Of a stretch of 64,000 nt of DNA, positions 6,092 through 52,096 are shown one piece after another. How positions within the stretch are numbered: the stretch's first letter is position 1; every line of letters starts with the position of its first letter. The position numbers and the translations under genes were made by a program. The stretch is taken from the sequence record MK977694.1; one strand, given 5' to 3'. This stretch comes from Escherichia phage vB_EcoM-Sa45lw. The notes beneath the pieces were generated by a model. The model saw only the letters and a program-made list of their open reading frames with translations, did no database searches and was not told the origin of the DNA.

Positions 6092-6175
6092 GTTATTTTC
6101 TGTATCAGTAGTTGATATTGATATAGTACCATAATCAACTACTGATGTATATAGTTTTATGAAAAAATTTAAACT

Positions 6176-16186: not shown

Positions 16187-16387
16187 ATGGTACAAAAATT
16201 AATGGCACTTGTTAATGCCATCAAAGGTAATAAGAAACGTATAGCTTTTACTATTTCTGCTATGGTAGGAATTTTACTCTGGAACTTTATTCTATCACCT
16301 GTTGCAATTGCACATGGTATTAATATTCCAGTAGTTACTCTTGATACATTTGTAGATTTAGCATTTGCTTTAGTTGGGTTAATTTAA
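16187..16387 (+). CDS. small hydrophobic protein on opposite strand
   Basis: 66-aa ORF; AAGGAGG 4 nt upstream of ATG; no recognised promoter. Confidence 0.4.
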   Translation: MVQKLMALVNAIKGNKKRIAFTISAMVGILLWNFILSPVAIAHGINIPVVTLDTFVDLAFALVGLI

Positions 16388-17414: not shown

Positions 17415-17579
17415 TTACTCTTCTTTTTCTTTAGATTCCTCTTTCTTCTTTTTAGGAATCTGTTCAGGACCTTTATTTACTACAGCGCCTGACGTTGTTC
17501 CAGTAGAGATATTTTCAGGATTACCACCTGAATCTCCAGCTACCATATCTTCTTTAATAAATTCTTTATATGTTTTCAT
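17415..17579 (-). CDS. small hypothetical protein
   Basis: 54-aa low-complexity ORF between 61.1-position gene and primase. Confidence 0.4.
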   Translation of the reverse strand: MKTYKEFIKEDMVAGDSGGNPENISTGTTSGAVVNKGPEQIPKKKKEESKEKEE

Positions 17580-17580
17580 A

Positions 17581-17937
17581 TTAACCTCTATTCATAAAAG
17601 CATTAAAAATTTGGTCATCAATAGATGGCACAGTAATATTTTCTGCATCATTTAGCAAATCATTAATTTCATCAGATAGCATAACACATGTGCCTTTATT
17701 TCCTGTAATTGTTACTGCACAATTACGAACGTTTTCTTTATCAAATTTTAGGTTAATATTTTCGTAGTGAAAATCCTTTAATGCCGAATATATCTTTAAA
17801 ATGAAATTGTCTTTTACTACAATAAACCCAACCTCACTATTAAAACGTGGTTCATGGAAACTGTAATAAACCTTTTCATCTATAAAATCGTATGAAATTT
17901 TTTCCATTTTTAAATATGAAAATTCAGAACTATACAT
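17581..17937 (-). CDS. hypothetical protein (61.1-position)
   Basis: 118-aa ORF; C-terminal DDQIFNAFMNRG shared with next ORF. Confidence 0.55.
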   Translation of the reverse strand: MYSSEFSYLKMEKISYDFIDEKVYYSFHEPRFNSEVGFIVVKDNFILKIYSALKDFHYENINLKFDKENVRNCAVTITGNKGTCVMLSDEINDLLNDAENITVPSIDDQIFNAFMNRG

Positions 17938-17938
17938 A

Positions 17939-18580
17939 TTAACCTTTATTCATAAAAGCATTAAAAATTTGATCGTCAATAGAAACATTTACTTTAGACT
18001 GTTTTTCTGATGGTAATTCATATCCACATATTACAATTTTGTGATCAATATCAAAATACACAGAAGCAATATGATTAATGATGTTTTCAGTAAAGTCTAA
18101 ATCAACATCAATATCTTTTTGACTAACGCTCAAAGGATAATTAATACGAATAATTCGATTATCTTTAACAAAGATTCCACCGACATACTCTGTGCTGCGT
18201 TTAAAGTTTACACGTTTCCTAAATGAAAAATATTCAGGTTCTTTATGGGCTCGACTCATAGGGCTTAAAGTGTATTCCGAATATGAAATATCAAATCCTA
18301 CACCTTCAATATGAGCCAACGCGTCATGATTAAACCAATTATAATCATATGCCAAATCCATTATATTGTAATATGTGAAAGGCACCGGATTAACATCATG
18401 TGTTATACCTTTAAAATCTGCCCAGGCAACGATTTCGTTATCTTTAACAATTACAAAAATTGTGTCAATAAGATATCCACGGTTATTTTCATCAGGCGTT
18501 ATATTATAACATTGCGCATCAGGAAATTTACCGTATTTAAACGGTGGATTTTTGTGCATATAATAAATCATATTATTCAC
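17939..18580 (-). CDS. hypothetical protein (61.2-position)
   Basis: 213-aa ORF; C-terminal DDQIFNAFMNKG. Confidence 0.55.
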   Translation of the reverse strand: MNNMIYYMHKNPPFKYGKFPDAQCYNITPDENNRGYLIDTIFVIVKDNEIVAWADFKGITHDVNPVPFTYYNIMDLAYDYNWFNHDALAHIEGVGFDISYSEYTLSPMSRAHKEPEYFSFRKRVNFKRSTEYVGGIFVKDNRIIRINYPLSVSQKDIDVDLDFTENIINHIASVYFDIDHKIVICGYELPSEKQSKVNVSIDDQIFNAFMNKG

Positions 18581-18866
18581 CTGTGATTTCGGTTACGATA
18601 TTTTTGTTATTAAAGTTTTTATCGCAATACAGAACATAATTATACTGCATTACACCACCAGACTTAAGTTGTTTTTGCACTTCAGCTTTCATTTTAGGAC
18701 GATCGCGCTCAACAATATTCATAATATCCGCTTCAATTTGAGTTTCAACTTCAGTCTGATCTGCAGTCATAGACCATTCACACAAGTCTTTATCATATCC
18801 TGCCATAGCAGGCTGAGCAGCACAAGAAGCCAAAGTAAAAATTGTAGCAAAAATAAATTTTTTCAT
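18573..18866 (-). CDS. putative lipoprotein
   Basis: 97-aa ORF with signal peptide and LASC lipobox. Confidence 0.55.
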   Translation of the reverse strand: MKKFIFATIFTLASCAAQPAMAGYDKDLCEWSMTADQTEVETQIEADIMNIVERDRPKMKAEVQKQLKSGGVMQYNYVLYCDKNFNNKNIVTEITGE

Positions 18867-18894
18867 GATAATCTCCTCAGTAGTTTATGTTTAT

Positions 18895-18924
18895 ATAGTA
18901 TCTCAATTTCCAACAAAAGTAAAC
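18895..18924 (-). promoter_or_regulatory. T4-type early promoter
   Basis: GTTTAC, 18 bp, TACTAT. Confidence 0.55.
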
Positions 18925-18926
18925 AG

Positions 18927-19226
18927 CTATTTTAAAACTTCTGCATAATCACATGTTACAAACTGTTTCTCTAGCTTAACGATCTTACGAAAGTATCTTT
19001 TGCATTGACGAATCTGCCGTTTCGTAGGACGTACAGCAAACTTAATAAATTCCACTCGACCAAATGGAGGGCTTTCTTCTGCCGGAATATCTAACACCAA
19101 TTCCCACGTATCAGCAATAAGTGCTTTGAATTGAGTATTTTTCCTGACGTTATACGGAGTAGGTTTAAATAAAACAATATGCATATTATCCTCGGCAATC
19201 CACTTCGCACACTTTCTTGTCATCAA
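18927..19226 (-). CDS. hypothetical protein (61.4-position)
   Basis: 99-aa ORF. Confidence 0.5.
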   Translation of the reverse strand: MMTRKCAKWIAEDNMHIVLFKPTPYNVRKNTQFKALIADTWELVLDIPAEESPPFGRVEFIKFAVRPTKRQIRQCKRYFRKIVKLEKQFVTCDYAEVLK

Positions 19227-19368
19227 TGAAAGCTTTAACTAATGCTTTATTAACTTCAGCATATTGAGTAGTAGCCCATTGAACGTCATCTTTCATCATT
19301 GTGATTTCTTTAGTAAACATGCTTTCATTCTTAAACCACCCCATAAAAACTACCTTTACCAATTCCAT
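19186..19368 (-). CDS. dmd: Dmd antitoxin (discriminator of mRNA degradation)
   Basis: 60-aa ORF directly upstream of gene 41, T4 Dmd size and position. Confidence 0.75.
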   Translation of the reverse strand: MELVKVVFMGWFKNESMFTKEITMMKDDVQWATTQYAEVNKALVKAFIDDKKVCEVDCRG

Positions 19369-25091: not shown

Positions 25092-25116
25092 ATCTGTATC
25101 AGTAGTTGATAGTTGT

Positions 25117-25146
25117 ATAGTACCACAGAAGAACAGTCTCGTAAAC
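25117..25146 (-). promoter_or_regulatory. T4-type early promoter
   Basis: GTTTAC, 18 bp, TACTAT plus conserved leader. Confidence 0.6.
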
Positions 25147-25232
25147 AGTTTTGTGAAAATTTTTTAGGGAATTCTAAAGGTCCAGAATCATCTGTTTTTC
25201 ATAAGTATAGATTTATATTACTTGTATGAAAA

Positions 25233-47625: not shown

Positions 47626-47655
47626 ATTATACCACATCCTTGTGGTAAAGTAAAC
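47626..47655 (-). promoter_or_regulatory. T4-type early promoter
   Basis: Near-identical to the promoter at 2418..2447. Confidence 0.7.
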
Positions 47656-48674
47656 TAGTTCAGTGCATTTAATGCATTGTTCAGTTTAGAACGTTGCTTC
47701 GTGAGATTTTTGACTTTTTCTTGTGCTTTTTCTAGCATCTTTTCAGCTTCTAACACTTCATTGGTCGCTTTAACGAGTTCATCATCTACTGCCTTAAGGG
47801 ACTTCTCAATCGCATCCGCGTGCCATTTTTCAACAGGTTTAAGACTCGGATTTTCAATAGGAAGAAAATTCACTTTATTGAATTTCCATGCATCTTTATT
47901 ACCTGAACTATACATCCAAAATTTAGGATCATTTGACGAGTAATTAGATAAATTTAAGGTATCTTGTACTTCCTGCTTTTTCTCTTGTGTAACTTCGTCC
48001 TTTCTCAAAAAATCGTATTTAAATGAAACGATCATATCAAGTTCATATGTTGTTGTGTCTAATTTAAATCGTTCGAAATGCTGTGAAATCTTAGACTGAA
48101 CTGCAGCAACAACATCCATATACTTAAATGCTTCTGTCAGCTGTGATTTAAGGCATTCACAAATTGAAAGAGAATTTTTTGTATTAGGTTTAAAGCTAAT
48201 TCGTGCAGTTCTATTATTTTCTTTTAATGGTCTTACTTCCATCTGAAGAGTATAACCATCAAATTTCAGATTCTTTAAGTTAATATCAGAGCCTTTTAAT
48301 CGACTAGCCGTCGACAAAATTTGCTTTAATTGTTTACGGAATAGAGCAATAAATCTCCACTCAAGACGATAATGATTTGGATTAAAAAATCCAGATGATA
48401 AATCGACCTTACTCTGACCAACACCTTGAACAAACAGAGGATTTTTATAATCAATAGTTTTACAGAAATCGGTGAGCTGCTCACGAGCAGTCATTTGTGT
48501 AATATACCCCGCTTTACTAAAATGACGTAACCATTCACTGCTATTCATATATTTAAAGTGAATATCACGATTAACTTTATCAGGGTCTAAATTATTTTGG
48601 CACAAAAATGTCATAACATCACGAGTATAGCTGGCATTACGAACCATATCTTCAATTTGAGAACGAGTTTTCAT
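47655..48674 (-). CDS. coiled-coil-tailed protein, paralog C
   Basis: 339-aa ORF; MKTR N-terminus. Confidence 0.6.
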   Translation of the reverse strand: MKTRSQIEDMVRNASYTRDVMTFLCQNNLDPDKVNRDIHFKYMNSSEWLRHFSKAGYITQMTAREQLTDFCKTIDYKNPLFVQGVGQSKVDLSSGFFNPNHYRLEWRFIALFRKQLKQILSTASRLKGSDINLKNLKFDGYTLQMEVRPLKENNRTARISFKPNTKNSLSICECLKSQLTEAFKYMDVVAAVQSKISQHFERFKLDTTTYELDMIVSFKYDFLRKDEVTQEKKQEVQDTLNLSNYSSNDPKFWMYSSGNKDAWKFNKVNFLPIENPSLKPVEKWHADAIEKSLKAVDDELVKATNEVLEAEKMLEKAQEKVKNLTKQRSKLNNALNALN

Positions 48675-50568: not shown

Positions 50569-50595
50569 TTTTGTTCCTCCGTAGTTGATAGTTGT

Positions 50596-50625
50596 ATAGT
50601 ACCACAGAGGAATGGTCTTGTAAAC
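50596..50625 (-). promoter_or_regulatory. T4-type early promoter
   Basis: GTTTAC, 18 bp, TACTAT plus conserved leader. Confidence 0.6.
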
Positions 50626-50627
50626 AA

Positions 50628-50942
50628 CTAAAAGAAACTTCTTTCACAATTTTTTCCACTGAACCAAGCGCTCACTGCTTTCTTAGTCTCAGGAGCAGTG
50701 TTATCCATAAACCATTCAAAGGCAGCCTTTTTATGATTCTGGAGGGCTTCTCGGGCTTTAATCTGCTCACGGTCTATTAACACTAACATATGAGCCTTTC
50801 TTGTCACCAAAGGCTTCTTATGATTTTTTGAATACTCCCAATCATTTGTCCAACGCATTGTCGTTGCGAACTGATGAACCGCGTCTTTAATTTTAGTTTC
50901 ATAAATTTCACGAGCTTTTGAGTATAACATCTTTACCTCCAT
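50628..50942 (-). CDS. hypothetical protein
   Basis: 104-aa ORF. Confidence 0.5.
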   Translation of the reverse strand: MEVKMLYSKAREIYETKIKDAVHQFATTMRWTNDWEYSKNHKKPLVTRKAHMLVLIDREQIKAREALQNHKKAAFEWFMDNTAPETKKAVSAWFSGKNCERSFF

Positions 50943-52002: not shown

Positions 52003-52036
52003 TTTATTCTCCAAATCCGTATCAGTTGATAGTTGT

Positions 52037-52066
52037 ATAGTACCATAAAGCTTTATGCTTGTAAAC
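52037..52066 (-). promoter_or_regulatory. T4-type early promoter
   Basis: GTTTAC, 18 bp, TACTAT plus conserved leader. Confidence 0.6.
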
Positions 52067-52096
52067 AATTTTGTGAAAAAATTTTTGAAATAAAAA

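Follow-up and report, generated by a model that had tools for sequence, protein, structure and literature searches.

A C-terminal tail shared by adfA and its single-domain paralog in Escherichia phage vB_EcoM-Sa45lw, and its coincidence with boundaries of gene gain and loss

We describe two neighbouring minus-strand genes in a 64,000-nucleotide (nt) stretch of DNA from Escherichia phage vB_EcoM-Sa45lw (sequence record MK977694.1; hereafter the window, meaning the whole of the DNA analysed), the products of which have diverged along most of their length and yet end in the same peptide, referred to here as the tail. The upstream gene (17939-18571) is identified as adfA, which codes for anti-DarT factor A (AdfA, also gp61.2). 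The downstream gene (17581-17937) codes for a 118-residue protein of the RB32ORF033c family and is called F118 below. The open reading frames (ORFs) finish with ...VSIDDQIFNAFMNKG for AdfA and ...PSIDDQIFNAFMNRG for F118, and 13 of their last 14 residues are identical, which confirms the common ending noticed in the original prediction. We think it probable, as a joint reading, that F118 is an ancient paralog of AdfA, that the tail is a peptide maintained throughout the family, that the DNA encoding it acts as a recombination joint, that the proteins are modular and that F118 is itself an inhibitor.

AdfA and an old single-domain paralog

The upstream ORF matches the Pfam AdfA family (PF23813) over its full length with 452.7 bits (cut-off 27; E = 1.8e-136), residues 4-213 in the 213-residue numbering falling on profile positions 1-211, and it also belongs to phrog_3781. 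It is 75-96% identical to gp61.2 of T4, RB69 and RB51 (about 80% in RB69) and lies between sp and 61.1, as expected of adfA in a Tevenvirinae genome; on these grounds we assign it as adfA. An ORF of 213 residues, as first predicted, does exist, but its GTG at 18580 is a probable over-extension. The start is most likely the ATG at 18571 (MIYYMHKN..., 210 residues), because this codon stands one base past the sp stop (junction TAA-T-ATG), as relatives are annotated. In RB69, AdfA acquires the binding and neutralization of DarT1 through the substitution R164H, whereas other T-even phages have the histidine naturally, and AdfA seems to act by binding the toxin directly (PMC11257639). The window AdfA has a histidine at the corresponding position, His167 in the 210-residue numbering (codon 18071-18073, minus strand; position 164 in the RB69 numbering of the literature), and would thus be of the DarT1-neutralizing allele type.

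The AlphaFold2 model of AdfA (predicted local distance difference test score, pLDDT, 71.6) consists of two repeats of five strands and a helix, followed by a terminal helix, and the determinant residue 164/167 falls in the first helix of the C-terminal domain. Sequence lends weak support to an internal duplication (hhalign, P ~2e-3), with which the secondary structure is compatible. The ratio of nonsynonymous to synonymous substitution rates (dN/dS) of 0.25-0.35 indicates purifying selection. Against the T4-type adfA allele of phage Shfl2, DNA identity is 42-68% in the first ~60 codons (window 18400-18600) and 74-82% around 18200-18300, compared with 86-100% for sp, the remainder of adfA, F118 and 61.1. 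Because identity drops locally in this comparison, adfA alleles are mosaic, with an old and highly divergent N-terminal segment.

F118 belongs to phrog_4122 (E = 1.9e-72) and exceeds the Pfam AdfA cut-off (32.2 versus 27 bits), but on profile positions 113-211 only; its close homologs carry precomputed PF23813 matches. In BLASTP, its alignment to residues 101-213 of AdfA spans 120 columns, tail included, with 31% identity (E = 9e-9). When the last 14 residues are cut from both families, hhalign still pairs F118 with the C-terminal half of AdfA (probability 86%, P = 4.9e-6), so that the paralogy proposed in the original prediction holds independently of the tail. The AlphaFold2 model of F118 (pLDDT 83.4) has strands within residues 8-64, a helix at 67-78, a strand at 84-87 and a helix at 89-100, that is, five strands and then a helix-strand-helix unit, and a C-terminal helix at 106-115 modelled with low confidence. 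F118 is thus made of one five-strand-plus-helix domain and the tail, unlike the two-domain architecture of about 210 residues found in AdfA. The paralogy detected without the tail agrees with the secondary-structure pattern of the two models, and we conclude that F118 is an ancient paralog with a single domain, equivalent to the C-terminal half of AdfA.

As the first of two options, the original prediction had put the likeness of the gene ends down to a recent duplication, which would here be a tandem duplication with 3′ ends that have not yet diverged. The genes are indeed adjacent, homologous and in the same orientation. Their bodies, on the other hand, are about as diverged as recognizable homologs get, as the 31% identity (tail included), the unequal lengths and the one versus two domains all illustrate. 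Among the identical residues of the bodies the same codon is used at 10 of 24 (about 42%), so synonymous sites look saturated. Each family is moreover conserved separately across genera, with orthologs in other genera, and stands alone in many phages: about 298 phage records contain F118 with at least 76% identity, its homologs in Gaprivervirus are 44-49% identical, and it evolves under purifying selection (dN/dS 0.07-0.31). We therefore give the recent-duplication explanation hardly any credence; the divergence of the genes outside their ends stands as predicted, the recency of the duplication does not.

The wider relatives of this domain are few. Word-index protein searches returned close homologs only, and when 1.84 billion representative proteins were searched exhaustively with a profile, seven matches resulted, namely six family members and one marginal match (E = 7e-4) to a 1658-residue protein. 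All of the family members for which the genomic context was checked are in T4-like phages, and with six of the seven matches inside the family there is no clear cellular ancestor. The AdfA/F118 domain matched none of the solved structures, either by sequence (best E = 0.22 and 0.92) or by fold search, and PADLOC and NCBIfam gave no meaningful matches. When the F118 model was used to search the folds of BFVD, it retrieved a Gapriver-type F118, a 157-residue Yersinia phage protein, a 212-residue protein of AdfA length and the 145-residue VR25 protein, which links F118 by fold both to AdfA and to the VR25 protein. This last type of match is compatible with homology between F118 and a third family, F146, for which the sequence support is weak (hhalign, P in the range 2e-3 to 8e-3). 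A full-text literature search found no paper mentioning F118 or RB32ORF033c.

An invariant peptide at the end of several families

At the DNA level, the original prediction of about 93% identity over 44 bp is borne out: 17581-17624 and 17939-17982 match at 41 of 44 bases, with mismatches at 17588/17946, 17614/17972 and 17617/17975. A repeat search lengthens this direct repeat to 49 nt (17577-17625 and 17935-17983; 46 of 49 identical; spacing 358 nt) so that it also covers the 1-nt spacer and the start codon (ATG) of the gene that follows. Copy 1 therefore comprises the last 14 codons of F118 (SIDDQIFNAFMNRG), TAA, the spacer and the ATG of 61.1, and copy 2 the last 14 codons of adfA (SIDDQIFNAFMNKG), TAA, the spacer and the ATG of F118, both on the minus strand. 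A degenerate pattern for DDQIFNAFM occurs at two sites in the window, which are the two tails, and at none in 100 shuffles, in keeping with the earlier claim of an identity above chance; the tail repeat is not due to chance. Among the direct repeats of at least 30 nt in the window, the tail pair alone is closely spaced (358 nt), and both of its copies lie in coding sequence.

The tail is not confined to these two proteins. The consensus [SV][IV]DDQIFNAFM[NK][RK][GD] ends at least three families: AdfA (208-216 residues), F118-like proteins (117-125 residues) and F146 (about 146 residues; phrog_8539), the last of which occurs in Gapriver- and Dhaka-type phages. All three are encoded directly after sp in Tequatro-, Mosig-, Gapriver- and Dhaka-type phages, and tail-bearing genes stand directly 3′ of sp in every relative examined. 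The peptide was found at 848 places in 687 phage records, and once or twice per T4-like contig in IMG/VR and metagenomes. Two metagenome loci (L038 and L039) have single genes of 125 and 120 residues after sp, the bodies of which barely align while the tail (DDQIFNAFMNRG) is identical. In another lineage, the metagenome contig OBRI01000039.1 carries at 1140-1540 a tandem of a 146-residue-type gene and a 122-residue F118-like gene. DDQIFNAFM is encoded in none of the 185,579 bacterial and archaeal species genomes searched, and we rejected mimicry of a host motif on this ground. We also considered a clamp-binding motif, as QIFNAF resembles the C-terminus of the RB69 polymerase, but the ends of gp43 (SLDFLFG) and gp55 in the window are out of register, and we set this candidate aside as speculation.

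Across lineages the tail codons vary synonymously (GCT/GCC/GCA, TTT/TTC, AAT/AAC, CAA/CAG, AGA/CGA and GGT/GGC) while the residues are fixed. Fixed residues with drifting synonymous codons place selection on the peptide and not on a DNA or RNA signal, so that the peptide is the primary constraint on the tail. What is conserved in the DNA beyond the peptide is the TAA-N-ATG junction and the last codons, AGAGG or AAAGG, which form the Shine-Dalgarno sequence of the next gene (AGAGG in copy 1 being that of 61.1). These stop/Shine-Dalgarno/start junctions amount to ordinary translational coupling of each gene to the next.

One may ask at this stage whether a nucleic-acid signal, be it a T4 middle promoter, a PeSL-like cassette or an RNA structure, could be the conserved element, with the peptide as a by-product. 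The Tequatrovirus tail reads AATGCTTTTATGAATAGAGGTTAATATG, in which TGCTTTT is followed after 12 nt by TAATAT. In sequence and spacing these elements recall the MotA box and -10 hexamer of the T4 middle-promoter consensus, and the last codons do provide the Shine-Dalgarno sequence and the start of the next gene. The key T of the would-be MotA box is, however, the wobble base of the alanine codon and is replaced by C or A in Gaprivervirus, RB69 and some Dhaka-type phages, where the residues stay fixed. A MotA-box middle promoter was rejected as the conserved constraint, since the base on which it depends varies freely at a wobble position. A scan called no sigma-70-type promoter or terminator at either tail, and the tail RNAs fold no more stably than shuffled sequences (z = -1.5 and +1.7), so the RNA-structure reading was rejected as well. 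Taken together, a conserved signal is a very unlikely explanation of the repeat.

The tails as boundaries of gene gain and loss

Gene content after sp varies among relatives, and presence or absence breaks exactly at the tail. The copy-number comparison called for by the original prediction distinguishes three arrangements. The tandem sp-adfA-F118-61.1 (the window, RB51, Shfl2 and Sf21) is represented by an adfA-F118 junction in 157 records; sp-adfA-61.1 (T4) by an adfA-61.1 junction in at most 228 records, an upper bound as split matches may be joined in this count; and sp-F118-61.1 (T2) by an sp-F118 junction in 141 records. What T4-type genomes lack is F118 exactly between the two tails, and this natural variation supports the prediction that the repeat is a substrate for deletion or expansion by recombination. 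The 3′ codons of the tails are informative in this respect. The adfA tail ends in AAT AAA GGT (NKG) and the F118 tail in AAT AGA GGT (NRG) in each of the seven tandem loci of Tequatrovirus that were read. In the four adfA-only loci read, the sole tail ends in AGA GGT and is followed by 61.1, that is, it has the 3′ state of the F118 tail of tandem genomes. Such a tail is the hybrid that a tail-by-tail crossover would be expected to leave, although the reverse insertion would be equally expected to give it. A parallel F118 insertion or deletion (indel) distinguishes the Gaprivervirus order F146-F118-orf73 from the Dhaka-type order F146-orf73, with boundaries again at the tails.

The reading that we favour would account for these arrangements as follows. 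The two tails have the same orientation and a spacing of 358 bp, and could for this reason serve as a recombination joint: a crossover from tail to tail would remove the body of F118 and one tail, giving the T4 arrangement, and the reciprocal product, or an unequal exchange between co-infecting genomes, would add F118. T4 recombines efficiently under selection at repeats of 6-10 bp in the same region (PMC9391042), and repeat-flanked cassettes in T4-type phages make mini-circles (PMC2839356). Since T4 uses far shorter repeats and such cassettes form mini-circles, a direct repeat of 49 bp with 94% identity and copies 358 bp apart is a credible substrate.

Two further loci bear on gene content at this site. 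T2 has been described as being without an adfA homolog (PMC11257639); in the T2 record (LC348380.1, 1489-1857) F118 follows sp directly and is labelled 'gp61.2'. The 11 nt before the F118 ATG in T2 (AGGTTAGTATG) are the same as the 3′ end of Shfl2 adfA including its TAG stop, but as an adfA remnant they are indistinguishable from the conserved ribosome-binding site of F118, and this candidate was rejected. Yersinia phage phiD1 (HE956711.1, 1033-2735) has adfA, F118, a 33-residue tail-ending fragment and a second, identical F118, hence four tails. This array is due either to tail-mediated expansion, to population heterogeneity or to mis-assembly caused by the repeats, the junction containing many Ns.

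Occasional exchange between the tails would also keep them more alike within a lineage. In the window, the identical residues of F118 and AdfA share the same codon at 10 of 12 positions in the tail, compared with 10 of 24 in the body, and in three further tandem Tequatroviruses at 11-12 of 12 compared with 10-13 of 26-27. Over these four genomes, which are closely related and not independent samples, the values are 83-100% in the tail and 38-48% in the body (one-sided Fisher test, p = 0.02 to 0.0002). Distances over 36 nt of the tail cluster by lineage and not by gene family: the AdfA and F118 tails of Tequatroviruses differ at 0-3 of 36 nt and the AdfA tails of T4 and RB69 at three, whereas F118 tails differ at 5-6 nt between Tequatrovirus and Gaprivervirus and the F146 and F118 tails of Gaprivervirus at 1-3. 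Both Gaprivervirus tails have the states GCC/TTC/AAG/CGA, including a nonsynonymous N-to-K change. The likeness of tails within a lineage suggests homogenization between the copies, albeit inconclusively.

These data must be weighed against an explanation by selection only, under which the same peptide and the same AT-rich codons would produce the repeat without any exchange, and indels would fall at the tail merely because gene boundaries are there. It has in its favour that the peptide is invariant while its codons vary among lineages and that one Dhaka-type F146 tail equals Tequatrovirus tails at 35 of 36 nt without obvious recent exchange, so that shared codon preference alone can give near-identity. 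In addition, the same-codon excess falls short of significance in three of the four Gapriver-type genomes. It is less easily reconciled with the contrast in codon use between tails and bodies in the four tandem Tequatroviruses, with the clustering of tails by genome and the states common to both Gaprivervirus tails, or with the F118-type 3′ end of the tail in the adfA-only loci read. We consider selection without exchange to be unlikely as the whole explanation. In our reading, most of the DNA identity of the tails comes from the conserved peptide and AT-biased codons, and exchange by recombination contributes the rest. The gene conversion invoked in the original prediction remains plausible with modest support, from the codon excess and the lineage-wise likeness of the tails.

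Several other points, like the Dhaka-type match, the Gapriver-type codon counts and the relatedness of the four genomes just mentioned, count against the reading that we favour. In one Gapriver-type locus (L032) the F146 tail ends in KRD directly before orf73, so that the last codon does not move with the downstream gene. The K/R linkage of the tandem and adfA-only loci could instead reflect a tuning of translation initiation, as the last codons overlap the next ribosome-binding site. Recombination at the tail is read from the comparison of sequences, and its polarity may be that of a deletion or of an insertion. The tail helix has a pLDDT of about 57-62 in the models and its partner is hypothetical. 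As to a role of F118 as an inhibitor, its Asn72 aligns with His167 of AdfA, in an alignment that at ~30% identity is indicative only.

The remaining part of the favoured reading concerns the proteins, which would be modular. A fast-evolving body of β-sheet and helix would recognize the target (DarT1 in the case of AdfA), and the invariant C-terminal helix, amphipathic in that I, F, F and M share one face, would contact a constant partner or interface. With a modular body and a constant tail, F118 is most likely a second inhibitor of a toxin or defence system, with a specificity of its own. It cannot depend on AdfA, since it occurs alone in T2-type phages. A bolder version, which seems to us possible but rather doubtful, would make the slot after spackle an array of anti-defence cassettes, each with a variable specificity domain and an invariant docking helix (DDQIFNAFMNRG). 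The DNA of this helix would be the joint by which inhibitors are stacked, swapped or dropped, possibly as 358-bp mini-circles, and the helix would tie all members of the family to a single constant partner, which might be a protein of host or phage or else a shared oligomer interface.

The locus and its relation to known systems

At this locus the window is 97-98% identical to AugustSocin, RB51, RB68 and similar phages and belongs to Tequatrovirus. The minus-strand gene order is gene 41, dmd, 61.4/tifA, sp, adfA, F118, 61.1 and 61. The upstream neighbour of adfA is sp (spackle; 18573-18866, minus strand), recognized by Pfam T4_Spackle (E = 6.8e-45) and synteny, and the downstream neighbour of F118 is gene 61.1 (54 residues; 17415-17579, minus strand), recognized by phrog_1823 and synteny with T4, T2 and Shfl2. 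Gene 61.4 (DUF7279; the anti-ToxN inhibitor TifA of the literature) and dmd lie at 18927-19226 and 19186-19368. The region of dmd, tifA (61.4) and adfA has been termed an anti-toxin-antitoxin island (PMC9391042); as 61.4 and dmd are both present, the window carries the full reported island together with an additional AdfA paralog.

Elsewhere in the window, a 67-nt repeat family is found at 18877-18943, 25099-25165, 50578-50644, 52019-52085 and 6105-6171, and a 32-nt repeat at 2418-2449 is 100% identical to 47626-47657. These repeats (32-67 nt) are upstream of minus-strand genes and look like conserved phage early promoters. With such a copy just upstream of sp, the genes sp-adfA-F118-61.1-61 may form one early transcription unit. 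Finally, a 66-residue hydrophobic ORF (16187-16387, plus strand) lies between genes 56 and 61 and overlaps the ends of both; the annotation of Sf21 gives its counterpart as a predicted membrane protein.

Phage inhibitors of DarT toxins are few, and AdfA, which is one of them, belongs to a small multigene family whose members have either one domain or two. The paralog with one domain is present in T2-type phages, which have been described as being without adfA. The same 12-residue C-terminal helix is kept by every member while the rest diverges almost beyond recognition. The locus thereby offers a division, open to test, into a specificity module and a constant one, nominates F118 as an anti-defence candidate, and may provide a natural example of a conserved coding segment used as a breakpoint for the gain and loss of counter-defence genes. 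Neither the tail shared by several families nor its coincidence with breakpoints of gene content was found in the literature searched.

Compared with what has been described, adfA is already known: the 210-residue ORF is like published AdfA in its full-length Pfam match, in its position between sp and 61.1 and in the histidine at the R-to-H site. F118 is an uncharacterized single-domain member of the same family. It has the C-terminal domain and the tail in common with AdfA, but differs in having one domain instead of two, in being only about 25-30% identical, in its asparagine at the DarT1-determinant position and in its occurrence without adfA in T2-type phages.

The repeat itself may be compared with two systems. 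PeSL elements (Arbiol et al., 2010; PMC2839356), regulatory cassettes by which T4-type phages shuffle modules and form mini-circles, are short conserved repeats around non-essential ORFs in hyperplastic regions, with breakpoints of indels and replacements at the repeats, and the tail repeats likewise bracket a variable ORF and have indel breakpoints at the repeats. A PeSL is, however, intergenic and combines an early promoter with a stem-loop terminator, whereas the tail repeat is coding, owes its conservation to the encoded peptide and is without promoter, terminator or stable stem-loop, our scan having made no promoter or terminator call at either tail. Being coding and lacking these two elements, it falls outside the PeSL definition. 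The second system is that of T4 itself, the anti-toxin-antitoxin island (Srikant et al., 2022; PMC9391042), which occupies the same genomic region, encodes small, rapidly evolving direct inhibitors of toxins and, as proposed for the locus studied here, changes in copy number by recombination at short direct repeats. The repeats used there are fortuitous microhomologies of 6-10 bp under laboratory selection, whereas the repeat described here is a selectively maintained coding segment of 49 bp, the variants of which have been fixed naturally.

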